12,782 nucleotides of DNA from Candidatus Thorarchaeota archaeon (lineage in GTDB: Archaea; Asgardarchaeota; Thorarchaeia; Thorarchaeales; Thorarchaeaceae). The stretch spans positions 1 through 12,782 of the forward strand of contig JBHLRP010000071.1 of NCBI GenBank assembly GCA_048882485.1. The letters are read 5' to 3'. Position 1 is the stretch's first letter. Each line of letters starts with the position of its first letter. Position numbers and translations under genes: made by a program. This document shows, one piece after another, positions 943 to 12,703 of this stretch. Below the pieces are notes generated by a model. It searched no databases, was not told the origin of the DNA, and saw only the letters and a program-made list of their open reading frames with translations.

Positions 943-1192
943 TTTCTTCAACTCCTGATGCCGCAATCAATTGGATTGAGATGCAGCATCTCATCTGCAC
1001 CCCCATCTAGGGTTCAGAAAGAGTTGAGGCTACGCGTTCTCGAGTTCAATGACTCTCAATTAGTTCGTTTGAACCCGGCTGTTGCATTATTTGTATATCT
1101 TTGAATTTAATGTTTCGGATATTTGATTATTCTCTAACCTTTCATCAAGTCCAATTCTACAGGAATGGTTTCATGGTTTCACTCCACAATTC

Positions 1193-1198
1193 TTTTAA
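1193..1198 (+). promoter_or_regulatory. Putative archaeal TATA box for the tRNA gene
   Basis: TTTTAA lies 32-37 nt upstream of the mature tRNA 5' end (1230), compatible with a short leader. Confidence 0.4.
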
Positions 1199-1250
1199 CC
1201 GTTCAAGAACGAACAGCCAACCACGACATGGGCCGGTAGATCAGCCCGGT

Positions 1251-1280
1251 TGAAACCCTGGTATCCAGGGTTTCCGGGAG
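1251..1280 (+). other. tRNA intron 1 (30 nt, D-loop, position ~20/21)
   Basis: Central helix CCCG/CGGG, bulges GT^T and AG^A, inner 10-bp hairpin GAAACCCTGG/CCAGGGTTTC. An alternative register (1252-1279) is possible but gives a less canonical D-loop. Confidence 0.85.
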
Positions 1281-1297
1281 AGATCGCCTCCTTGGCA

Positions 1298-1326
1298 CTT
1301 GTGACGCACTTCGCGTGCATCCAAAG
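1298..1326 (+). other. tRNA intron 2 (29 nt, canonical 37/38)
   Basis: Central helix TTGG/CCAA, bulges CA^C and AG^T, outer helix is the anticodon stem CCTCC/GGAGG. Confidence 0.92.
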
Positions 1327-1342
1327 TGGAGGAGGTCGCGAG

Positions 1343-1372
1343 ACTCAGCGTGAATTCCACGCAGAGCGCGAA
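1343..1372 (+). other. tRNA intron 3 (30 nt, T-arm, position 53/54)
   Basis: Central helix CGCG/CGCG, bulges AG^A and AA^T, inner helices CTC/GAG and GCGTG/CACGC. Removal restores GCGAG-TTCGAAT-CTCGC. Confidence 0.9.
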
Positions 1373-1424
1373 TTCGAATCTCGCCCGGTCCACCATCCTT
1401 TTCGTGGTTCCACGTTTCTATTGA

Positions 1425-3428
1425 CTATTCTCGTATCATCCTCACGTTTTTCTTGAGCAGAACCGTGAATAGGATTATAGTTGCTCCTACTCCGATTGCA
1501 ACTCCCAAAATGAGTGCCATCACTGGGTCGAAACCATGAATGGTTGTGCTTGCTGTTGTTGATGTAGTAGTAGCAGCTATCACTTCAACAGTAATGGAAA
1601 CAAAGAGCGTATGTCCATAGATGTCACTGACATAGACTCGCAGTCCATAAGTCCCCAATTCAAGGATGCCAACTGTACGAATTTGTCCTAACCAATCAAT
1701 TACAAAATGAATTGTATCATCTACCCACCAGTCTCCAATTCCTGAAGGGTCAGTCGCATCAAGATCGCACACATAGGTGGTGCCATACTCGATTGTCTGA
1801 TTCTGCGGTTGCTCACCCCATGCGGGAGCCAAAGTATCGACTACTGTTATTGCGAAGAGCCCCGTGAGTGTATTCCCCCGCGTGTCATTGACCCAGACCT
1901 GTACTCCATAAACTCCAACCGCAACAATACCAATTGATGTGACTTGTCCATCATTATCGATTGCAAAGTAAAGCGTGTCATTCAGCCACCAGGTATCCAA
2001 TCCAGAAACGTCTGTCGCATTCAAATAGTATCTAAGACTTGCTCCGCATTCGACAAGCTGATTCACAGGGGCTTCAAGCCAAGTAGGGGGAGATCCATCT
2101 TCGACGATTACAGTGAAGGTTTTTGACAGAGCAGTGCCTTCTGAATTGCTAACAGATACATGGATGCCGTACCTCTCTGGGAGGAGGATTGTCATGTTTG
2201 TAAGTACTCCAGATTGGTCGATAGCGAAATTGTCAGTGTCATTAATCCACCAATTATCCCAACCTCCGTAGATTGAGGCATTCAAATCATATCTTAGAGG
2301 CTCTCCAAAAGAGATCACTTGATCAACTGGAAATTCCAACCAAAATGGTGGTGAATCTGGTGGAGCCATAAGAGGATGCAAATCCTGATTTCCTGGAAAG
2401 GAGTAAGGAGTATCACCTACACCATTCTCATCTGTGTCATATCCATCATAGCCCGACCAGAAATTGTAGTCAAAGACATCGCCACTTCCCCCATCAGAAG
2501 CATGAGCAGCGGCGTTCGTTACGAAGACGTTCCACAGTATGTCGTTGAGATGACAAAATCCATCGAGGGAGATGCCAATGTTGTTGTTGTTGTAGGTGTT
2601 GTTCATCACTTTGTTGGAATCAGAAACTTGGATGTAGATGCCGTATTGACTATTGTTGCTTAAGGTGTTGTTCATTATTGTGTTGGAATGTGAGATTTGC
2701 AGGTTGATGCCGCTTTGACTATTGCCATTGCAGGTGTTGTTCATCATTATATTGGAATTTGCAACTTCAAGTCTGATGCTGTAGATGTGGTCATTGAAGT
2801 GGTTGCGCGCTATTGAATTTAATGATGAATACTGTAAGAAAATACCAAGCTGACTGGTGTCAAAGATGTTGTCTGACAAAGTGTTGGAATCGGAGTTATC
2901 GAGGTAGATGCCCACACTGTCATTGGTGAAAGAGCTGTTAGCCACTTCTATAAGTGATGAGAATCCAAGGTATATACCAGCATAGCTGTTGTTGCAAGTG
3001 TTGTTGACTAGCTTGCCGTAGGTGACATTCTCTAGGTAAATCCCAGCTCCGTTACCCGGTACCGAGTAATTAGCACCAGTGAGATTGGAATTACTTATAG
3101 TGAAGTTAACTCGCGTGTTACTGATGCTTATGCAGTTACCGAATGCACCACCAAGGTCAATGTCCAATCCATCGATTATGAACGGGTTCTCAGGAGAACC
3201 ATCCCCAGGCCATCCCTCTAGCAGGACTGTGTCCGAGAAGTTGGCATCTCCATCTATGACAACGGGAACATGCGGTGTATCAGCAGGAAATCCCCTGAAT
3301 TCCGGATTTGATACAATGACAATTGACCTAGTACTGTTATCATATAGGTCAGCAACATTCACAACACATCCTAGAACCAGGATGATTCCCAGAGATACAA
3401 ACCAATAGGCGAAATACGCCTCACGCAT
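1425..3428 (-). CDS. Cell-surface protein: right-handed parallel beta-helix (NosD/CASH-type) plus three ~87-aa Ig/cadherin-like repeats and a C-terminal membrane anchor
   Basis: N-terminal hydrophobic segment; GWPGDGSPENPFII; many GIYL..S..N.I.NN repeats; NosD-like end NFWSGYDGYDTDENGVGDTPY..DLHPL; three repeats starting PPFWLEFPVDQ, PPTWLEAPVNQ and APAWGEQPQNQ; Thr-rich linker; TM helix and basic tail. Confidence 0.9.
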   Translation of the reverse strand: MREAYFAYWFVSLGIILVLGCVVNVADLYDNSTRSIVIVSNPEFRGFPADTPHVPVVIDGDANFSDTVLLEGWPGDGSPENPFIIDGLDIDLGGAFGNCISISNTRVNFTISNSNLTGANYSVPGNGAGIYLENVTYGKLVNNTCNNSYAGIYLGFSSLIEVANSSFTNDSVGIYLDNSDSNTLSDNIFDTSQLGIFLQYSSLNSIARNHFNDHIYSIRLEVANSNIMMNNTCNGNSQSGINLQISHSNTIMNNTLSNNSQYGIYIQVSDSNKVMNNTYNNNNIGISLDGFCHLNDILWNVFVTNAAAHASDGGSGDVFDYNFWSGYDGYDTDENGVGDTPYSFPGNQDLHPLMAPPDSPPFWLEFPVDQVISFGEPLRYDLNASIYGGWDNWWINDTDNFAIDQSGVLTNMTILLPERYGIHVSVSNSEGTALSKTFTVIVEDGSPPTWLEAPVNQLVECGASLRYYLNATDVSGLDTWWLNDTLYFAIDNDGQVTSIGIVAVGVYGVQVWVNDTRGNTLTGLFAITVVDTLAPAWGEQPQNQTIEYGTTYVCDLDATDPSGIGDWWVDDTIHFVIDWLGQIRTVGILELGTYGLRVYVSDIYGHTLFVSITVEVIAATTTSTTASTTIHGFDPVMALILGVAIGVGATIILFTVLLKKNVRMIRE

Positions 3429-3540
3429 GAACAGTTTCTCCTCCGTTGCGAAGAACGTGATGAGAGTCTTTTATGCATATCACAAATCCCGATAGCCAAG
3501 TGTTATCGTCTTCGATCTCTCTCGTGATATTCTCCGTACA

Positions 3541-3588
3541 ATGCCAAAGTTTACTTATTAATGCCTAAGTTTGCCTAATAGTGCCAAG
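3541..3588 (+). repeat. Imperfect 20-nt tandem repeat (~2.4 copies)
   Basis: ATGCCAAAGTTTACTTATTA and ATGCCTAAGTTTGCCTAATA (16/20 identical), then GTGCCAAG. Confidence 0.5.
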
Positions 3589-3610
3589 AGCCTATGGAGT
3601 ACCAACTAAA

Positions 3611-3631
3611 CAAATCTCGCCCGGTCCACCA
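3611..3631 (+). repeat. tRNA-Ala 3'-end repeat R1
   Basis: CAAATCTCGCCCGGTCCACCA; the last 19 nt are identical to 1377-1395. Confidence 0.95.
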
Positions 3632-3676
3632 CTCTCTTTCGCAAGCCCAAAGGGGCCACAAAATCTGCATATAGAC

Positions 3677-3967
3677 TCATTTGATTGCCCAAATCATCAG
3701 TAGGATGAGCAATCCAAATAGTAGGTTCAATACTATTTGAATATGGAGAAATGATAAGAACCACAAATCAAAAGGCTGGTGCAGGAGAAATCCAGAGACA
3801 CCACCATAGCCCCATACCAAGTAGTTAGCAAAGGCATAGATAAAGAGAAAGGCAGTGCCCAAGCAAATTCTGAATGTCCTGCGCTCATTCAGAATCTCAT
3901 CAACCAAGTGTTTTACTTGCTCTTCATTAATGGCATGGCTTCTTTCCCCGTCTGCCATCATACTCAC
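3677..3967 (-). CDS. Small hypothetical membrane protein (2 predicted TM helices)
   Basis: 96-aa ORF with a charged N-terminus and two hydrophobic stretches. It fills the R1-R2 interval. The start may be one of the downstream Met codons. Confidence 0.7.
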   Translation of the reverse strand: MSMMADGERSHAINEEQVKHLVDEILNERRTFRICLGTAFLFIYAFANYLVWGYGGVSGFLLHQPFDLWFLSFLHIQIVLNLLFGLLILLMIWAIK

Positions 3968-4057
3968 TGAGTTCCAGGATGCAACTAGCTGTTGATGAGT
4001 TTTCCGTAATCAAATGAAACTGGTATTTGGCTACCATAGTTCTTGGTTAAACTCCTT

Positions 4058-4080
4058 TTCAAATCTCGCCCGGTCCGCTA
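4058..4080 (+). repeat. tRNA-Ala 3'-end repeat R2
   Basis: TTCAAATCTCGCCCGGTCCGCTA; 20/23 identical to 1373-1395. Confidence 0.93.
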
Positions 4081-4081
4081 T

Positions 4082-4684
4082 TCATTTTCCAGAGAAAATA
4101 TCCTGAGCAGAATCCTCAATATCACGCTTTGAGAAGACTTCTTCATTAGTGCCACCCCATGGTGATGATAACAGATTTGGACGTAGGAGAGGTATTAACA
4201 AAACAGCTAGAATTGAAACCAGTGGCAATGGAATCACAGCAGAGAAGTAGACCATTCCACCACTTGAAGCCCGGGGAACTGTCATCATTGGCAATGTCAT
4301 CAGGATTGCCAGAATTGTGACGAAAGCAACTCCTGCTGAATACCGGCCAATACTGGAATATTTTCCCTGCGCAAATCTGTACGACTGATATCCTATGTAG
4401 ACGTATGGCAGCCAATAGAAGATCATGATTAAAGCCATTGGAGTTGGTCCAATGTAAGAGACCCAGTCACTTTGGAGTGCAACCCATGTTGGTGCATAAA
4501 TAGCCAGTTGCTGAAACTCAGCCTCATTCAACCAGTCAACTAGATATGGAAGGAATAGTGAAAGGCCAAAAATGATCTTCGAAATCTTGATTCCTCTGGA
4601 TGTCGGTTCGAAAGGTAGTGCCCCACTCAAATAATGAATCCTCGTTTTAGAGCAGGAAAGAAAGGATATTAACTTTGTACTCAA
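4082..4684 (-). CDS. Hypothetical multi-pass membrane protein (about 4 TM)
   Basis: Four hydrophobic segments and an acidic C-tail. The start is uncertain: the track uses a TTG, and the first hydrophobic segment begins near KISKIIFGL (~4590). Confidence 0.7.
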   Translation of the reverse strand: MSTKLISFLSCSKTRIHYLSGALPFEPTSRGIKISKIIFGLSLFLPYLVDWLNEAEFQQLAIYAPTWVALQSDWVSYIGPTPMALIMIFYWLPYVYIGYQSYRFAQGKYSSIGRYSAGVAFVTILAILMTLPMMTVPRASSGGMVYFSAVIPLPLVSILAVLLIPLLRPNLLSSPWGGTNEEVFSKRDIEDSAQDIFSGK

Positions 4685-4838
4685 CTAGATGGATGGGTGT
4701 ACCTTGTTCTGCTTCCACCATCATCTGGAGTATGCTATGAAGAAAGGAACTAACACGGTTGTGATGGTTGCCATTAGAAAGCGCACAAGCAAGAAGGTTG
4801 GATACCCAGCTTATGCTCCTTTCAGATATTTCTTGAAG

Positions 4839-4864
4839 GAATTCAAATCTCGCCCGGTCCACCA
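4839..4864 (+). repeat. tRNA-Ala 3'-end repeat R3
   Basis: GAATTCAAATCTCGCCCGGTCCACCA; 25/26 identical to 1370-1395. Confidence 0.96.
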
Positions 4865-4967
4865 CTTCATTCTGTATTGCCAATTCGTCAAAAGATCCCA
4901 CTTGCTACAATGGACCGGTTTATGAACGAGTTGAGCTTGACGTGAAGGGTGGGAGATGTAAAGAATC

Positions 4968-5792
4968 TTGAAGATTGGCGCTGTCATTCGACCGGTGAAT
5001 CAGAACTACAACTTAGAAGAGATCAAGAACTTTGTGAATGCAGTTGAAGAACTAGGATTCGATTATCTGCTGGCATACGACATTGTCACAAAGACTGAAC
5101 ATTCACCACCGCCAACCAGCGAACCACTTGTCTTAATCAGTTATCTAGCCGCACTGACGAGCAAATTGGAGTTTGCTACGGGAGTCATAATTCTACCATC
5201 TAGACAGACGGTGTTGGTGGCCAAACAGGCAGCTGAAGTTGATCATTTTACTGAGGGGCGATTAAGACTCGGTGTGGCAGTTGGTTGGAATGAAAGAGAG
5301 TATCAGGTAATGGATTCTGACTTCACCTTGCGAGGAGAGAGGATCGAGGAGCAAATCGCAGTGATGCGGGAGCTATGGACTAATCCGACTATCACTTTCA
5401 AGGGGAAGTTTCATGATCTGAAGGATATTGGAATTGAGCCGTTGCCAGTGCAACGCCCAATTCCCATTTGGCTGGGTGGCTACGCTGATGTTGTCCTTCA
5501 GCGGATCGCCAGAATCGGGGATGGCTGGCTTGCTCACATTACAACGCCTGAATCAGCAATCCCCATTGTGGAGAAATTACATAGCCATATGGAAGAAGAA
5601 GACCGGAAGAAGAGTGACTTTGGTATCGGGGTTTGCTTGGATATGCACTTCTCTCATGATTGGGGAGAGTACATTCAGGCATGGACTGATTTGGGTGCCA
5701 CTCATTTTGATATTGATACTACAAGGGCGGGATTAAAGACCCCTAAAAATCACATCGAGATGGTTCAGAACTTCAAAGACGAGTGGTTGTAA
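4968..5792 (+). CDS. LLM-class (luciferase-like) oxidoreductase, probably F420-dependent
   Basis: MKIG..., EELGFD, EPLVLISYLAALTSKLEFATGVIILPSRQTVLVAKQAAEVD, GRLRLGVAVGWNEREY, PVQRPIPIWLGG and RIARIGDGW are typical LLM motifs. TTG start with GGGAG upstream. Confidence 0.92.
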   Translation: MKIGAVIRPVNQNYNLEEIKNFVNAVEELGFDYLLAYDIVTKTEHSPPPTSEPLVLISYLAALTSKLEFATGVIILPSRQTVLVAKQAAEVDHFTEGRLRLGVAVGWNEREYQVMDSDFTLRGERIEEQIAVMRELWTNPTITFKGKFHDLKDIGIEPLPVQRPIPIWLGGYADVVLQRIARIGDGWLAHITTPESAIPIVEKLHSHMEEEDRKKSDFGIGVCLDMHFSHDWGEYIQAWTDLGATHFDIDTTRAGLKTPKNHIEMVQNFKDEWL

Positions 5793-5802
5793 TTTCGTTC
5801 AT

Positions 5803-5828
5803 GAATTCAAATCTCGCACGGTCCACCA
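5803..5828 (+). repeat. tRNA-Ala 3'-end repeat R4
   Basis: GAATTCAAATCTCGCACGGTCCACCA; 24/26 identical to 1370-1395. Confidence 0.95.
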
Positions 5829-5992
5829 AATCTATTGTTCAGTCCATCATCATTTAGTTCCCATTCCGCTTTCTCAATGGTATTTGCCTCAAACCCAATC
5901 GCATAGCCATTCAAAGCAGCAATTGAGGCGTCCTGAAATTCACAATCCTAATATCGGGGGGCAGTGCTCAGATTGGATAGGAGATTGGGCCC

Positions 5993-8617
5993 ATGAGGAT
6001 TAGAGTATTCGCTTTCATGATTTTACTATGTGCTTTGATTTCGTTTCCAATTACGGGGTATGCTGATGAGGTGCCTGCTGAATTGAGATTTGATGATGTT
6101 GCATCAGGACCTTATGTGGACAAGTTGGTCTATAGAACAATTTCATCAGAAAGCAGTCGTGTTCAGGCTCTACTGGATAACGAGATTGACATTCTGGATG
6201 GCCCAATTGATTTCTCCTATATCTCGACTTTGAATTCATCACCTGAGGTCGAGTTGTCTTCTATTCTCAGAAATGGGTATGGGGTATACACAATTAATTG
6301 CGCCAAATACCCGCTGAGTATCTCTTCACTTAGGAGAGCTTTTGCATTAGCGCTTGACAAAGAACGAATTTCTACGGAAGTCTTAGGCGGAAAATCCGTT
6401 CTTCATGACTCCTTAGTACCGCTCGTAAATCCCTTCTGTGCTGAGAATTCGTTGCCGGGCGATTACTATTCGAATTACACAAATGAAGCGAATCAACTCC
6501 TTGATGCTGCGGGATTCTTAGACATCAATGCTGATGGATTCCGAGAAGCACCAGACGGGACGACGTTCCAGATTACCATTGAATATGGTGTCACCCAGCC
6601 TCGGGCCGATTCAATTGCAGTACTTGCAGCAGATGCGTTATCAGCGATAAGCATCAATGTTGATATTTCGCCTGGAGATTCCTATGAGATCCTTTACCGA
6701 CTCTACAGTCATGGGGATTTTGATGTTATTTTCGGGGGTCGCAATTTCTATGACTTTGGCCTTCAGTGGTTGGAGCAGTACTACGATTCCTCCCATAACC
6801 ATCCAGGCGAGAATCCCTCTAACTATATCAACGCCACATTAGATGCCTACATGGATATTTTACTAACTAGCACCAACTATATGGAAATCTACGATGCTGC
6901 GGAAGAGATACAGAAGATACTCTTCGAAGATAGCCCTGAGATTGTCCTGTATGAGGAATTTTCCTACTCTGCCTATAGAAAAGACCGCTTTGAAGGTCAC
7001 GTGGTTGATGTTGTCAATAATGTCGAAAATGAATGGACAAATCTCAATGCACACCTCACGCCCATAGATGGTGGCCCGTTTACAGGAACTCTTAGAATCG
7101 GCATGAGTGTCTTTCCGAGTACACTCAACCCAATGTTGGCGACTCATTATAGCGACATGGTACTTGACAATCTATTCGCGCATCTTATCAAAATAGGTCC
7201 AGATGGAGAATTCAGGACGGATCTAGCTGGAACCTATCTGATGGAAACTCATGCAGAAAATGCTTCAATTCCAGCAGGCTATATGCGATTTACATTTGAT
7301 ATTCTGAGTAATGGATCCTGGAGTGATGGGACTTCTGTGACAGCTGACGATGTAGCATACTCGTTCAATTATTACATGAATGCTGGTGGAGGGCAATTGG
7401 CTGGGTATCTTGAAGATATGACACTTGCCACTGCTCCAAATTCAAGCCGAGTCATTGTTGAATTCAACATTGAGTCATACTGGTATCTCTACAGTTTCGC
7501 AAACTTGCCCATCCTTCCACGGTCTATTCTGGAGAGCCTCGGGCCAACAGGATGGAGTTCTTGGGACCCAGTTTTCACCGATTCCTTCCTAACATGCGGT
7601 CCTTTCATTCCAACATCTTATTCCTTAGACAACTATGTTGAGCTATCTCAAACTACACTCTATCATCATAGAGTCCGAGGCACTGGATCGGCATTACCTT
7701 TTGCGTCAGGGCCTACTGATATGACAATCATAAACGGGACCATGGGAAGTTCCATTGGCTGGAGCATTTCTGATGATAATGCATTGGCTTATCGTATTTT
7801 GAAAAATGGAACTGCAATTGTGGGTGAATATTATGACACTTCCACCGTTGAACTGGACATTGACACCTATCTCACTGAATATGGCGTCCACAATTTCACT
7901 ATTCAAGTTCAAGATTGGGATGCTCAGATTAGTATTGATACTATCCTTGTCGAGTTCCTACCGGACACATTTGCCCCTGATGTGGCTGGACCTGATGACT
8001 TCCTCACCTTCGATGTGTTCTCAAGCGGAACTCTGATTAGCTGGACTGTCTTCGATCATAATCCTGCGAGCTATAACATCCTAGTTGATGGTATAGTTGT
8101 CGCGTCTGAAGACTGGACAAGTGCGATGATTTCGATAAGTCATGATATCGGAGTACTCAGCGCTGGAGAATATAACTTCACAATCTATCTGGTTGATGAC
8201 AAAGGTTACAGCTCAACCGACACTGTGATTGTGACAGTGGTTTCAGATGAAGTTCCACCTGTGATTGACTCGCCAGATGACGTAGTCATGAATTTTGGTG
8301 AACTGGACCAAAAGATACAGTGGAATGCAACTGACTTGTACCCCTATACCTTCACAATATACCTGAACTCTATCGTAAATGTCACAGGTCCTTGGGAATC
8401 AGGCGTACCAATCATCTTCAGTCTTGATGGACTTGAGGCTGGTTCCAATAATGTGACCATTGAGATAAGAGATGTTGTCAACAATGCAGTCGTGGATACA
8501 GTGAATGTACTTGTACATCCTCCAGGGTATATACCTCCCGAGGTGCTGTTCTTGACGATTGCAGGGGCCTCAGCGGTTGTTGTAATTGTTGTGATAATAC
8601 TCAAGGTTCGGAAATGA
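5993..8617 (+). CDS. ABC transporter family-5 (OppA/DppA-like) substrate-binding protein, apparently circularly permuted, with three Ig-like repeats and a C-terminal TM anchor
   Basis: Signal peptide; LRRAFALALDK, ANQLLDAAGF.D...DGFR, TLNP, WSDGTSVTADDVAYSF and CGPF motifs; three ~95-aa repeats (GPTD, GPDD, SPDD ... W...D); TM helix then KVRK; AGGAG upstream. Confidence 0.9.
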   Translation: MRIRVFAFMILLCALISFPITGYADEVPAELRFDDVASGPYVDKLVYRTISSESSRVQALLDNEIDILDGPIDFSYISTLNSSPEVELSSILRNGYGVYTINCAKYPLSISSLRRAFALALDKERISTEVLGGKSVLHDSLVPLVNPFCAENSLPGDYYSNYTNEANQLLDAAGFLDINADGFREAPDGTTFQITIEYGVTQPRADSIAVLAADALSAISINVDISPGDSYEILYRLYSHGDFDVIFGGRNFYDFGLQWLEQYYDSSHNHPGENPSNYINATLDAYMDILLTSTNYMEIYDAAEEIQKILFEDSPEIVLYEEFSYSAYRKDRFEGHVVDVVNNVENEWTNLNAHLTPIDGGPFTGTLRIGMSVFPSTLNPMLATHYSDMVLDNLFAHLIKIGPDGEFRTDLAGTYLMETHAENASIPAGYMRFTFDILSNGSWSDGTSVTADDVAYSFNYYMNAGGGQLAGYLEDMTLATAPNSSRVIVEFNIESYWYLYSFANLPILPRSILESLGPTGWSSWDPVFTDSFLTCGPFIPTSYSLDNYVELSQTTLYHHRVRGTGSALPFASGPTDMTIINGTMGSSIGWSISDDNALAYRILKNGTAIVGEYYDTSTVELDIDTYLTEYGVHNFTIQVQDWDAQISIDTILVEFLPDTFAPDVAGPDDFLTFDVFSSGTLISWTVFDHNPASYNILVDGIVVASEDWTSAMISISHDIGVLSAGEYNFTIYLVDDKGYSSTDTVIVTVVSDEVPPVIDSPDDVVMNFGELDQKIQWNATDLYPYTFTIYLNSIVNVTGPWESGVPIIFSLDGLEAGSNNVTIEIRDVVNNAVVDTVNVLVHPPGYIPPEVLFLTIAGASAVVVIVVIILKVRK

Positions 8618-8627
8618 ACTAGCTAAA

Positions 8628-8646
8628 CGGGGGAATGCTTCCTCGT
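8628..8646 (+). terminator. Possible stem-loop after the SBP gene
   Basis: ACGGGGGA-ATGC-TTCCTCGT pairs with two G:U pairs, starting about 10 nt after the stop; no U-tract directly follows. Confidence 0.25.
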
Positions 8647-8657
8647 GGTCGTCCCCT

Positions 8658-8676
8658 ATTCTTGTCCAGTCCACCA
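8658..8676 (+). repeat. Degenerate tRNA-Ala 3'-end repeat R5
   Basis: ATTCTTGTCCAGTCCACCA versus AATCTCGCCCGGTCCACCA is 15/19 with no gaps, in the expected intergenic position. Confidence 0.7.
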
Positions 8677-8980
8677 TCTCAATTCATTCGAATGGATTTA
8701 ACATGCCATGACTCTTCATCAGAGCCTTGTGCTTGAATGCCATTAACCAAGAATATGACCAGATATCCCTTGCAAGCTGCATCCATGAAAGCAGTAACAG
8801 ATTCCGAATATGTGTTCAAGATACATCATTTCGGAGGTTAAATCTCAATTCCACACCAAGTTCTTCGGTTTTTGGCTCCATTTGTAGATTTACAGTTGAT
8901 TTCGGACCCAGTGAGTTTGCGCAAATAGATATTCTATCTGAGTGACTCATGCAATATTGAAGAGACCCAGAGGAAGATAG

Positions 8981-10486
8981 ATGATGAGAATCACGCGACA
9001 AACGAGAGCACTCTTGGTAATGAGTTTGGCCTTCCTCTTGCCGCTTACAGCAATCAGTATCTTCTATTATCGTCCGCTTTTTGCACCGGTATACTTGGAG
9101 CCATCCGACTCGATTGATGAGTTCGTTGAACAATTGGAAACAAAAATCTCTGCGTTACTGGAAACAAATACTGTCCCTGGAGCTGCCATTGCTGTCATTT
9201 CAAATAATCAGACCAATATCATTACAGCTGGTAGGTCAAACCTGTTTACAAGCGAGCCGCTGACACCGCACCATGTTTTTCAAATTGCATCCATGTCCAA
9301 GAGCCAGTGCGCACTTGCGATTATGAAATTGATGCAAGATGGATTGATTCTACTTGATGCGCCCGTAGAGTGGTATCTGACAAGGTGGTCATTTCCGGAT
9401 TCTCAATACAACACCTCAGGTGTGACAGTTCGACGAATACTATGCCATGCAGCCGGTATTTCTTTGGAGGGGGTCTCAGGAGGGTTCAGCCCGGATGATG
9501 TGCCTACAATTGAGGACGCATTGACTGATTCAGGAGTGAGTTTAATCTACGAGCCGGGGAGTGTCTTCTCATACTCCGGGGGCGGATATGGAATTCTGCA
9601 ATTGCTCATAGAAGAGGTCAGCGGGATGAGCTATGACGAGTATCTACAGTCAGAAGTATTTGAACCTCTGAATATGTCAGATACTGCGACTGGTTGGGAT
9701 TCATCTATTGAGGACCATCTTGCTGTGGGATACAGTAACATGCTTCTGCCTATTATTCGAACCTATCCTTCAATGAAGGCTGCAGCTGCGCACTACTCAA
9801 GTATCGAAGACATGGCAAAATGGGTGAACCATCTTCTTGTCGGCCAGCCAGTGGTTAATACAACAAATATGCTAGCGATGTACACACCGCAATGGGGTGA
9901 ATCATGGGGTTGGACTCTGGGCTTCAACTACAAGATGCTTAGCAATGGAATACTCACATTAGGTCATGGTGGTGATAATTGGGGCTATCATGGTGCATAT
10001 CGTTTCGCACCCTAAGATGGAGAGGCGATTATAGTTCTAACAAATGGTGATCGAGGGGCCGCATTTGTAACAGAGCTGTTGCATCATTGGGAAACTATTA
10101 TTGAAGGAGGAGATCTGGAAATCCTGTGGGAAGACCAGAATCAAGCCTACGGACAGACATTCCTCTATGAGATGATTACAATAGTCGGCTTTGTGACTCT
10201 GTTGCTGCTTGCCTGGAATCGAGGTTTCATTGTTTTCTCTCGAAGTGCAGAACAAAAGAGGTCTGGAGAAAAGAAATGGTTCAGAAGAATTTTATCAGTC
10301 ATGTGCGTTTTGGTGATTATTATATTCTTCATATATTGGGGATATACACCATTGAGCCCCATATCTTACGGACCCATTAGCTATGTCTGGACAGTCATTG
10401 CTACTCTCACATGGCTGACTTGGACATCAGTGACCTTTCAGCAATTCGATTTAGTTTCGGAAAAGACAACATTGAAGACATCGTAG
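8981..10486 (+). pseudogene. Membrane-anchored serine hydrolase (beta-lactamase class C/AmpC-like family) interrupted by one in-frame TAA at 10013-10015
   Basis: SxxK in FQIASMSK, TVRRILCHAAG, PGSVFSYSGGGY, GHGG. ORFs 8981-10015 and 10079-10486 are in the same frame, and read-through gives YRFAP*DGEAIIVLTNGDRG (the family's terminal IVLTN strand) followed by about three TM helices. Confidence 0.85.
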
Positions 10487-10491
10487 CAACA

Positions 10492-10506
10492 TCGAATCTC
10501 GCCCGG
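10492..10506 (+). repeat. Truncated tRNA-Ala 3'-end repeat R6
   Basis: TCGAATCTCGCCCGG is an exact 15-nt match to 1374-1388, 5 nt after the hydrolase stop. Confidence 0.88.
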
Positions 10507-10597
10507 ATAGTCACTTCTATTTCTTCGGATAGTACAATCATTTCATAGACTGTAGTCTTTTATCCATCGGTATTGTTCTGCATCTTGAGGTGTTCGG

Positions 10598-11089
10598 GTG
10601 GCAAGTGAAAGTGTGGGCACAAAGCCTACGAGGACTGGCAGAGATTATACCTATTTTGCCATTGTGATTCTCATAGGATCTCTCCTTTTGCTCAGCCCAG
10701 TAATTGCACAGTGGATGAATGCCAACGTGGTTCCTACCGAATATCAGGGCCTTATCCTATTAAGAGGAGAAGTTGCAAATTGGCACTCTGGAGCACTTCT
10801 ACTCACCTATGATGATGGAATCAAGGACCGATGGACGATTGATGGATACCAAGACTATACGGATTTAGATGAAACGCATCCACTATACGGGTGGATATCG
10901 TGGGGCCGACCTAGCCGGAACTTCACACGTACCGAAACTCTCACACTGGAGTATCACTGTTCTGGATTAGGCATGACAATCGGACCTGTCACCTTCGAAT
11001 CAGATTCGTCGCAGATACTCTATTCTAACCAAGACCTTCCTGAAGCTCCAGATGGGCTATGGATTACATGGATTACGTCACATCCATAG
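10598..11089 (+). CDS. Hypothetical protein with an N-terminal TM helix and a small extracellular domain
   Basis: 163-aa ORF, GTG start preceded by GAGGTG and an upstream TTTTAT; hydrophobic FAIVILIGSLLLLSPVIA. Confidence 0.75.
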   Translation: MASESVGTKPTRTGRDYTYFAIVILIGSLLLLSPVIAQWMNANVVPTEYQGLILLRGEVANWHSGALLLTYDDGIKDRWTIDGYQDYTDLDETHPLYGWISWGRPSRNFTRTETLTLEYHCSGLGMTIGPVTFESDSSQILYSNQDLPEAPDGLWITWITSHP

Positions 11090-12520
11090 CAGCTGTGTGA
11101 TCATCATTCTGAGGGGCTGGAGTTCAAATCTCGTCCGATCCGCCATCTCTATCCTGATCGGTTGATCTAATCTTGTCATTATTTGACTCCCGGCTTCCAC
11201 AGACTCCACAGATAGAAACTGCTGTCCGGGGGCTGCGTATTCCACAACTCCTCCAACCATTGTCATTAGTACCTTTATGTCAGCAAGGGTGTTCTCGGGA
11301 ACTGTCAGTGGATTATCTGAAAGGATTACTAGGTCTGCGAATTTGCCCACTTTAATGCTCCCCTTGATGTCTTCTTGAAACGTGCCGTAGGCTGCGTCAA
11401 TTGTAATGAGCCGCAGAGCTTGTTCCACGCTAAGAGTCTGGTTTAACATCCAATCTGTGGGTGTAAGCCCCAGTCCACCAACCCTTGTGACAGCACTAGA
11501 GACCGCATACATTGCTGACCTCTCCATTGTCCCCGGAAACCAAGGAAAGTCAGTACTGCCTTGTGATGGTATTCCAGCTTCAAGAATATCTCTCCATCTA
11601 CCTGCTAGGTGTGAGTAATTCTGCAGAGCTGGAGATGATTCTGCCTCATTCCAATCAGAGTTAATCCATGTGAATTGAAAAGTAGCAATAATTCCTAGAT
11701 CAGCCAGCCTCTGTATCTGGTCGTTTCTTAGTAGGACAAGGTGTTCGATACGGTGGCGATACTGTTGGTTCGATTGCCCGTCCAAAGCCGATTCCAGAGC
11801 ATTTAGAACAATGTCAGTCGCATTATCGACCAAACTGTGAATGGCAATCTGGAAACCTGATTCATGAGCCTCTTGCACTAATGAATCCAATTCAGTCTGA
11901 GAAAAGTAGGGAAGCCAAGTGGAATCATACCAACTGTCCATAAAGATCTTCACTCCTGCTATCCTCAACTTAGAGCTGTATTCCTGCCCGGGTTGATAGG
12001 CCTGATACCAATTGCCGAACCTATCAAACTGCCAGCTCAATGGAAGATAGGCATTAACGCGAATGCGAAGCTTGTCCTGTTGATCTAAAGTTATGAGCCC
12101 ATCCAATCGTTCCTGATTCACAAAGAGTTCGGAAATGCTGGTCCATCCAGAACTAAGTACCGAGTCAATCACTTCATCTGCCGTTGATTGGTTCACATAA
12201 CTCCGATCACCTATATGATGAGAATGAGCATCAATGAAACCAGGTAGAAGTGTCCTTCCTTCAAGATCAATGAATTGGGTATTTGGTCCTGCCGTCGCAA
12301 GGATGTCATTCTCATCACCTACAGCGATGATATTCTCACCTTGGATAGCGAGTGCCTCGACCTTTGCTGGGGATTGCTCCATAGTCAGAATTTCACCATT
12401 ATGTATGATTATATCTGGTGAATCATTCCAGAATCCTTGTGAAACAAGATACAAGAGAGACACTAGCAAAATCGCGAGCACAACAGACGTAATTACAAGC
12501 AATCCGCGTCGTTTCATCAA
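11078..12520 (-). CDS. Amidohydrolase (amidohydrolase_3, YtcJ-like) with an N-terminal membrane anchor
   Basis: DLEGRTLLPGFIDAHSH, GVKIFMD, FQIAIH, HRIEH, GSTDFP and KGSIKVGKFADLVILSDNPL; AGGAG upstream of the start. Confidence 0.92.
   Translation of the reverse strand: MMKRRGLLVITSVVLAILLVSLLYLVSQGFWNDSPDIIIHNGEILTMEQSPAKVEALAIQGENIIAVGDENDILATAGPNTQFIDLEGRTLLPGFIDAHSHHIGDRSYVNQSTADEVIDSVLSSGWTSISELFVNQERLDGLITLDQQDKLRIRVNAYLPLSWQFDRFGNWYQAYQPGQEYSSKLRIAGVKIFMDSWYDSTWLPYFSQTELDSLVQEAHESGFQIAIHSLVDNATDIVLNALESALDGQSNQQYRHRIEHLVLLRNDQIQRLADLGIIATFQFTWINSDWNEAESSPALQNYSHLAGRWRDILEAGIPSQGSTDFPWFPGTMERSAMYAVSSAVTRVGGLGLTPTDWMLNQTLSVEQALRLITIDAAYGTFQEDIKGSIKVGKFADLVILSDNPLTVPENTLADIKVLMTMVGGVVEYAAPGQQFLSVESVEAGSQIMTRLDQPIRIEMADRTRFELQPLRMMITQLLWM
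11120..11145 (+). repeat. tRNA-Ala 3'-end repeat R7
   Basis: GAGTTCAAATCTCGTCCGATCCGCCA; 19/23 identical over the 1373-1395 equivalent. Confidence 0.85.
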
Positions 12521-12610
12521 GATGTCTCCTTGTTTCTAACCAAGCGGATTACTGGTATCCGAAGTTGGCTAATAATCATCCGTTCGAGTGTCCCTTGATT
12601 TCTTCAGAAA

Positions 12611-12638
12611 GGAGGCGGCATGAGTTCAAATCTCATCC
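12611..12638 (+). repeat. Degenerate tRNA 3'-half remnant R8 (T-arm)
   Basis: GGAGGCGGCATGAG-TTCAAAT-CTCATCC aligns to spliced GGAGGAGGTCGCGAG-TTCGAAT-CTCGCCC. The acceptor end is lost. Confidence 0.65.
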
Positions 12639-12673
12639 TAGAATTAGGAGAATTTCAATTGCTTAGAAGAATG

Positions 12674-12703
12674 TGATACCCTGGCTAAATAGCCAGGGTA
12701 TCA
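12674..12703. repeat. Perfect 14-bp inverted repeat, possible terminator of the incoming minus-strand gene
   Basis: TGATACCCTGGCTA-AA-TAGCCAGGGTATCA followed by an A-run (a T-run on the minus strand), about 25 nt past the stop at 12729. Confidence 0.6.

Follow-up and report, generated by a model that had tools for sequence, protein, structure and literature searches.

The region described here is a 12,782-nucleotide stretch of DNA from a Candidatus Thorarchaeota archaeon (the window), which is the entire contig C71 (JBHLRP010000071.1) of genome G000 (GCA_048882485.1), a 3.96-Mb metagenome-assembled genome (MAG) with a completeness of 90.5%. The window contains a tRNA-Ala(GGC) gene, and 3' of this gene are eight direct copies of its T54–A76 end (T-loop to CCA) with spacings of 2236, 449, 784, 964, 2848, 1837, 632, and 1502 bp. 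Each of the eight units so delimited carries a gene. We interpret the region as an additive island built from mobile cassettes of one or two genes. The window was compared with 87 genomes of the order, 40 of which bear such arrays and 47 of which do not, and arrays were surveyed at 54 loci in 40 Thorarchaeia genomes, comprising 169 units. Genomes, contigs, loci, and public sequencing runs are labeled G, C, L, and X, respectively.

The tRNA-Ala(GGC) gene (1230–1395, plus strand; fold z-score, −5.1) is the anchor of the array. It holds three bulge-helix-bulge introns (about 1251–1280, 1298–1326, and 1343–1372), located in the D-loop, at 37/38, and at 53/54. Because these introns interrupt the gene, ARAGORN and Rfam called no tRNA in the unspliced window, and ARAGORN recognized it after in silico splicing. 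Among relatives, the same gene contains from none to three introns. Donor-type intron ends persist in some array copies, and the introns may therefore travel with cassettes (compare PMC3293823). A TFB-recognition element (BRE)/TATA-like element (1180–1200, plus strand), conserved in 45 of the 87 genomes, forms the left edge of the conserved anchor and, judging from its position and sequence, is the putative promoter of the tRNA.

The copies are all on the plus strand, and their coordinates and spacings as given in a preliminary description of this DNA are correct. Copy 1 (3609–3631) matches from C56, copy 2 (4058–4080) matches at 21 of 23 positions, and copy 3 (4842–4864) at 23 of 23 if R57 is allowed. 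Copy 4 (5806–5828) and copy 7 (11123–11145; 20 of 23) are the left and right breakpoints, respectively, of a second allele discussed below, as seen in alignments with that allele and with public contigs. Six matches with three or fewer mismatches were found, counting the tRNA itself, as compared to 0.00 expected from 200 shuffles. Copies 5 (8654–8676; 16 of 23, ~0.1 expected per window by chance) and 6 (10491–10513; 17 of 23, 0.01 expected) are decayed, and both have counterparts at the orthologous place in relatives (G005). The decayed form of copy 5 is common to the window and G005, where units 5 and 6 form one block. Copy 8 differs in origin. It had been described as a tRNA-Ala copy, but in the Ala register (12625–12647) it agrees at only 12 of 23 positions, and the sequence at 12617–12639 is instead a 23-nucleotide exact match to the T-arm region of the tRNA-Ser(GGA) of G000. 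The T-stem changes in this copy are compensated, and relatives hold an Ala copy at this place. The array is not an artifact of assembly, a possibility we considered and rejected, as independent public contigs bridge the junctions at 3631 (run X6), 5828, 8676, 10513 (runs X4 and X6), and 11145.

The genes of the units are functionally diverse. Unit 1 encodes a 667-amino acid NosD/β-helix protein (1425–3428, minus strand; PF05048, PF13229) that is probably surface-anchored. Units 2 and 3 encode membrane proteins, one of ~96 amino acids with no assigned family by open reading frame (ORF) and family annotation (3677–3967, minus) and one of 182–200 amino acids whose family also occurs in the arrays of G072 and G084 (4082–4684, minus). 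Unit 4 encodes a coenzyme F420-dependent oxidoreductase of the luciferase-like monooxygenase (LLM) type according to family annotation (4968–5792, plus), and unit 5 an 874-amino acid family 5 substrate-binding protein of an ATP-binding cassette transporter (5993–8617, plus; PF00496), with no adjoining transporter genes. Unit 6 encodes a serine hydrolase of the β-lactamase family (8981–10486, plus; PF00144), which scores under every class C β-lactamase cut-off and is split by an in-frame stop codon at 10013–10015; intact alleles or homologs of 515 amino acids exist. Unit 7 encodes a 163-amino acid membrane-anchored protein, likewise with no family by ORF and family annotation (10598–11089, plus), and unit 8 an amidohydrolase-3 (11078–12520, minus; PF07969). 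The preliminary description of one gene per unit with four genes on each strand thus holds in the window, apart from the split gene of unit 6; among relatives, only 117 of the 169 units have a single gene. No integrase or phage gene is present among the window units according to gene and family annotation, as had been stated. In a crude test, cassette genes showed no upstream enrichment of TATA-like words (49 as compared to 58 expected).

The amidohydrolase unit is informative about unit ends. Close homologs of its gene occur in 21 of the 87 genomes, and most have flanking Ala copies. The reading frame passes through copy 7 and has no stop codon within its own unit, so the C-terminus of the protein is set by the neighboring unit; in relatives the length ranges from 472 to 562 amino acids. 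The unit has two right ends, at +62 (L109, L115, L122, and L123) and at about +105. The shorter one consists of a cryptic 6-bp T-loop match (GTTCRA; 12582–12587, plus strand, in the window) joined to the tRNA end, and is the unit end in a second amidohydrolase subfamily. This join suggests how new unit ends arise.

Beyond the last copy, a near-perfect 30-bp palindrome occurs directly at 12674–12703. The final 77 bases of the window overlap contig C63, and this continuation was confirmed in another assembly. The continuation (C63:1–9400) has genes for an aminotransferase and a flavin oxidoreductase, which occur as repeat-bounded units in L374 and L063. It retains one copy only (C63:4388; 16 of 23), and the array probably continues in decayed form toward tRNA-Phe.

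Entire units of the array come, go, and change order, their orientation stays fixed, and the junctions fall on the copies. The clearest case is contig C132 of the same assembly, a second allele that agrees with the window as far as the CCA at 5828, proceeds through other genes, and rejoins it in the T-loop at 11122, constituting an internal replacement within the array. Public contigs depart from the window at 1390/1397, 4076, 4842, 5828, and 11123. In run X1, the departure at 4076 continues into the sequence that follows copy 3, which corresponds to an allele without unit 3. Units also recur elsewhere. The LLM unit (4839–5828) aligns from repeat to repeat at 92.9% identity with a unit that has other neighbors in other metagenomes, and the block of units 5 and 6 (5805–10506) aligns in the same way at 95.2%. 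Identity is 0.87–0.89 just inside the copies and 0.38–0.45 just outside them. The repeat motif is not scattered over the genome, where its near matches fall in tRNA genes, in the array, or in its second allele.

The same properties hold across the survey. The 169 units have a median length of 983 bp and a median coding fraction of 0.84, and 37 have two genes. Single-gene units are divided nearly equally between the strands (60 plus, 57 minus), while 39 of 40 families keep a single orientation throughout. The order of units differs among relatives, being inverted in 6 of 26 informative unit pairs. The same right-hand neighbor was seen for the same family in 0 of 56 comparisons, a count that misses one real case, the adjacency of units 5 and 6 shared with G005, where the inner copy is too decayed to be called. 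We conclude with high confidence that these are mobile cassettes that recombine through the copies, and the proposal that the units are minimal, non-autonomous, and mobile with breakpoints on the copies is borne out by C132, the public contigs, and the relatives. The proposal that they were inserted serially at the tRNA fares less well: decay shows only a weak trend with rank (rho 0.17, not significant), and C132 is an internal replacement.

At L334 (G055:C9:713–8159), four of five long copies have in common a T-loop substitution, A to C at position 58, that is absent from the resident tRNA. This suggests that copies have undergone gene conversion or that an internal copy was duplicated. In some genomes the tRNA-Ala(GGC) locus is inverted relative to its flanks, and copies of the tRNA-Ala(GGC) tail or promoter are found close together in both orientations in G081:C110, G075:C38, G078:C86, G057:C166, and G074:C206. 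Because of these inversions, we did not count as evidence the gene families that upstream and downstream arrays have in common.

The preliminary description envisaged one tRNA-derived attachment (att) sequence as the site of insertion. We find instead that the layout occurs at about ten tRNAs, at the ends of protein genes, and, in relatives, as mirror arrays on the 5' side of this tRNA, all of which are new here. In G000, copies follow tRNA-Leu(GAG), Tyr, Asp, Arg(TCG), Phe, Val(GAC), His, and one further tRNA, and contig C82 has 12 copies of a tRNA-Lys end. These tRNA-end copies are 19–49 bp in length and occur downstream only. Repeats of 45–140 bp, derived from the ends of protein reading frames or from a promoter, bound similar units on C4, C6, C15, C34, C46, C85, C92, and C141; arrays of this kind span C15:20270–50296 (at least 11 copies), C85:385–8609, C46:18725–22536, and C6:68762–72278. 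Some of the protein-gene anchors may be selenoprotein genes with candidate selenocysteine insertion sequence (SECIS) elements. At L356, the repeat consists of whole tRNA-Ala(TGC) genes.

The mirror arrays were seen in G085, G053, G064, G066, G072, and G099, where the tRNA-Ala promoter, leader, and 5' part are duplicated upstream over ~100 bp with genes between the copies. In the window, other strains depart at 1173–1183, just left of the tRNA promoter, according to public contigs. The DNA to the left of the promoter thus varies between strains, and the region at 1–966, which has a gene for an M6-like metalloprotease (weak match to TIGR03296), may therefore represent unit 1 of a mirror array located upstream. 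In G000, the tRNA-Ala promoter was found only once.

The anatomy of the copies was analyzed in 86 examples. Identity to the tRNA is ~0.9 over T55–A76, 0.7 at position 54, ~0.55 at 52–53, and ~0.4 further left, and a pyrimidine-rich tail follows the CCA. There is no motif on the cassette side, with less than 0.4 bits at each position left of T54. The left extent of copies varies: positions 39–48 are kept in 15 of 28 copies of one genus, as compared to 5 of 142 copies in two others. The long copies reach the anticodon stem, some with an intron end, and are rare where the 53/54 intron is common. In L331, L340, and L344, T-stem markers form a matched foreign pair on the inside with resident halves on the outside, the pattern that a single reciprocal crossover within positions 50–64 would produce. 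In two to four cases the first copy is foreign throughout, as expected of a later crossover, and L079 and L338 have resident-type 3' halves only, with foreign left arms.

The best reading of the mechanism, to which we give not quite even credence, is that small circles integrate through a single crossover directed by homology and carried out by the host. Each cassette comprises a gene, its upstream DNA, the pyrimidine-rich tail that follows CCA, and a short duplicate of the end of the tRNA. Recombination between two copies would release the unit as a small non-replicating circle, which might then reach another cell. The copy on the circle would cross over with the tRNA or with an older copy, and this entry would rebuild the tRNA gene and leave a spare end, as in a Campbell-type insertion-duplication. 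Catalysis would be by host homology-directed recombination or annealing over about 20–100 bp, with no dedicated integrase, and new units would be born when chance microhomology near a gene joins the T-loop. The excision of circles, their transfer between cells, and the nature of the catalyst are steps that we infer. This reading is suggested by the many anchors, the use of both ends of one tRNA, the variable lengths and crossovers of the copies, and the fact that neither an enzyme nor an arm motif was found. It would account for the use of any conserved essential end as an anchor, whether a tRNA 3' end, the promoter and 5' part of the tRNA, or the end of a protein gene, and for the survival of terminal fragments only, since these regenerate the gene and selection favors an intact gene.

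Several observations weigh against a host-directed crossover. A length of ~20 bp is short for RadA-type strand exchange, and other Asgard groups should have the same general recombination machinery. Arrays are nonetheless strongest in four to six Thorarchaeia genera and rare in some other Thorarchaeia genera. No clustered copies were seen in other Asgard families or groups, and ~45 metagenome loci of another archaeal group with an identical tRNA end have one copy each and no clusters, which argues that the arrays are a lineage trait. No Rad52/ERF-type annealing protein was found in five genomes. Conservation of the copies jumps at T54–T55 and is then flat to A76, and Leu, Phe, and Lys copies also start near the T-loop, although these tRNAs have no intron there. 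The DsiB integrase inserts in the T-loop of transfer-messenger RNA (tmRNA) and leaves 20-bp repeats (PMC3146451), the same geometry as that of the copies here. The T-stem marker analysis involves about ten units and single-base markers. The sole candidate for a circle is a back-joint of 5828 to 4896 with a depth of 3.9 in one run, which could also be a tandem pair, and no circular contig was found among 80 metagenome loci. Lastly, the genomes compared are without exception incomplete MAGs, and such assemblies often lose helper elements.

In a rival explanation that we judge rather unlikely, transient helper elements (viruses, plasmids, or integrative elements) supply anchor-specific tyrosine or large serine integrases that act in trans to insert and excise the units, which would be cargo mobilized in cis or in trans. 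The 20–23-bp copy from T-loop to CCA fits the geometry of known att sites (PMC3146451, PMC8371274), and three units with reciprocal crossovers in or near the T-loop are in keeping with such an enzyme. Islands left by such elements in Prochlorococcus greatly outnumber the elements themselves (10.1101/2020.12.28.424599). A tyrosine or Xer recombinase acting in trans and tracking with the arrays had been proposed at the outset. Tyrosine recombinases (PF00589) do occur in 29 of the 87 genomes, but they do not track with arrays, being present in 14 of 40 array-bearing genomes and 15 of 47 others (hand tally), and large serine recombinases (PF07508) occur in two of the 87. G000 itself has no PF00589 match; a custom profile run on six frames yielded one broken integrase fragment (C13) and zinc ribbons. 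The tyrosine-integrase profile matched none of the 169 units, and 20 Thorarchaeia integrase loci, examined over ~10 kb on each side, lie away from tRNA ends and from non-tRNA repeats. A single integrase was found beside an identical tRNA-Ala end. This tyrosine integrase of 421 amino acids (L233:1933–3195) is encoded 70 bp past a tRNA-Ala(TGC) gene that contains an intron and whose 3' end is identical, and the archaeal contig in question is not similar to G000. However, it has no close homolog in Thorarchaeia, with distant matches in only three of the 87 genomes, and viral contigs had no exact match to the three tRNA ends searched. More than 15 unrelated anchors would moreover require as many enzymes, and the copies lack a conserved arm motif.

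A host enzyme of a new kind is in our view improbable. Such an enzyme, a structure-specific nuclease or a recombinase of new fold, would act at folded single-stranded tRNA loops or at ends exposed by transcription, with repair installing the cassette, and would make the system an analog of the integron. The sharp T-loop boundary across differing tRNA sequences agrees with this explanation, and the restriction of arrays to some Thorarchaeia genera suggests a lineage-specific factor. Known families were excluded by our searches: in G000 we found neither a tyrosine nor a serine recombinase in intact form, nor any Cas1, reverse transcriptase, IS110, or TnpA, and PF00239 resolvase, Cas1, reverse transcriptase, IS110, and Y1 transposase were absent from all five array-bearing genomes searched. 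Against it, no candidate gene emerged, and the anchors share neither sequence nor evident structure. Topoisomerase IB was considered as the catalyst and rejected, being present alike in array-rich and array-poor genomes. DprA gave a short borderline match only, which we do not count as evidence.

Two side observations concern these enzyme families. About two thirds of Thorarchaeia genomes across the order have no match to a tyrosine recombinase (XerA-like), while topoisomerase IB occurs in all five genomes tested (G000 C40:21021–21749). G000, with no Y1 transposase match, has a 404-amino acid ORF (C58:8241–9455) whose N-terminus may be TnpB-like.

It is very improbable that the arrays are eroded, immobile leftovers of larger self-integrating islands, with alleles that differ by deletion between repeats. 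It is well documented that islands accrete in tandem and decay at the ends of tRNA and tmRNA genes (PMC3146451, PMC6563490), and the window shows decay in its distal copies and a break in one gene. The units are, however, compact and have no integrase remnants, and they recur at 93–95% DNA identity with exact repeat ends. As they recur beside other neighbors and in inverted order, deletion alone is insufficient. Target-site duplication of a Cas1/casposase-like kind or tRNA-primed reverse transcription is hardly credible: the core of the copies resembles the 3' 18–21 nucleotides of a tRNA and the 3' halves at L079 and L338 are all resident in type despite foreign left arms, but the five genomes lack Cas1 and reverse transcriptase, the units have no terminal inverted repeats (longest end match of 2–5 nucleotides), some hold divergent gene pairs, copy length is not fixed, and the copies include intron ends and promoters and are therefore derived from DNA.

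The arrays invite comparison with known systems. Integrons and clusters of attC sites lacking integron integrases (CALINs), which have been described in archaea (PMC9668308), likewise string together small mobile cassettes that are unrelated, hold a single gene in most cases, and have one recombination site apiece. Here, there is no IntI or attI, the head of the array is a tRNA gene, and the end of a host gene is what the site duplicates. Integron cassettes are generally co-oriented, whereas the cassettes here lie equally on both strands with their own upstream DNA. A simple pattern test found no attC core-site pair within about 100 nucleotides of any copy, and fold z-scores ranged from −0.95 to +1.66. 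The arrays thus work like an integron yet have neither attC nor IntI and are mixed in orientation.

With additive flexible genomic islands the arrays share a fixed locus, variable content, and addition of cassettes, as seen throughout the survey. Islands of this kind at tRNA genes have been described in Ca. Actinomarinales (PMC7771536), in Methylophilaceae (flexible genomic island fGI-2; PMC10872708), and in Alteromonas (PMC5217437). Those islands are bacterial, with insertions of 330 bp to 42 kb (1–63 coding sequences) ascribed to mobile elements, whereas the arrays here belong to Asgard archaea, consist mostly of single genes re-ordered family-wide at many anchors, and have no detectable recombinase. 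The ssrA islands (PMC3146451) and tycheposons (10.1101/2020.12.28.424599) are similar in their tandem accretion behind an RNA gene, in ~20-bp 3'-end repeats that begin in the T-loop, and in having some members without integration modules. They differ in that sixteen Dehalococcoides islands have the DsiB module and a conserved 15-bp motif before the repeat, as compared to no arm motif here, and in that tycheposons have integrases and multi-kilobase cargo. The tRNA-targeting archaeal tyrosine integrases of the SSV1/SSV2, SNJ2, pTN3, and pT26-2 types (PMC8371274) duplicate the 3' part of a tRNA (the 5' half in pTN3) and restore the gene. These are encoded by the element, either intact or split across att sites, while the units here contain no such gene or fragment and both tRNA ends are used. 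The casposon pattern of Cas1, matched ends, and fixed copy length is absent here. A literature search for this architecture in Thorarchaeia or other archaea returned nothing relevant, most subscription papers being outside its reach, and the accessible part of a paper on Asgard mobile elements (PMC11529989) makes no mention of such arrays.

We regard it as a real possibility, somewhat short of even, that several Thorarchaeia genera have a genome-wide system of one-gene cassettes that is agnostic to the anchor, uses 20–100-bp copies of essential ends, relies on host short-homology recombination or on a host enzyme of unknown family with no dedicated recombinase, and exchanges cassettes between lineages. 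If so, an Asgard lineage mostly without integrases, CRISPR adaptation genes, and IS110/TnpA would still turn over its accessory genes, drawing on a shared library of single-gene modules docked at the ends of essential genes. The arrays separate integron-like behavior from IntI/attC chemistry, and they make testable the old assumption that islands studded with tRNA fragments always depend on an integrase; for several additive islands of bacteria, the published descriptions name none. Were a new enzyme responsible, it might serve as a compact tool to insert DNA at the ends of tRNA genes, and were host recombination responsible, it would mean unusually efficient short-homology recombination in relatives of eukaryotes.

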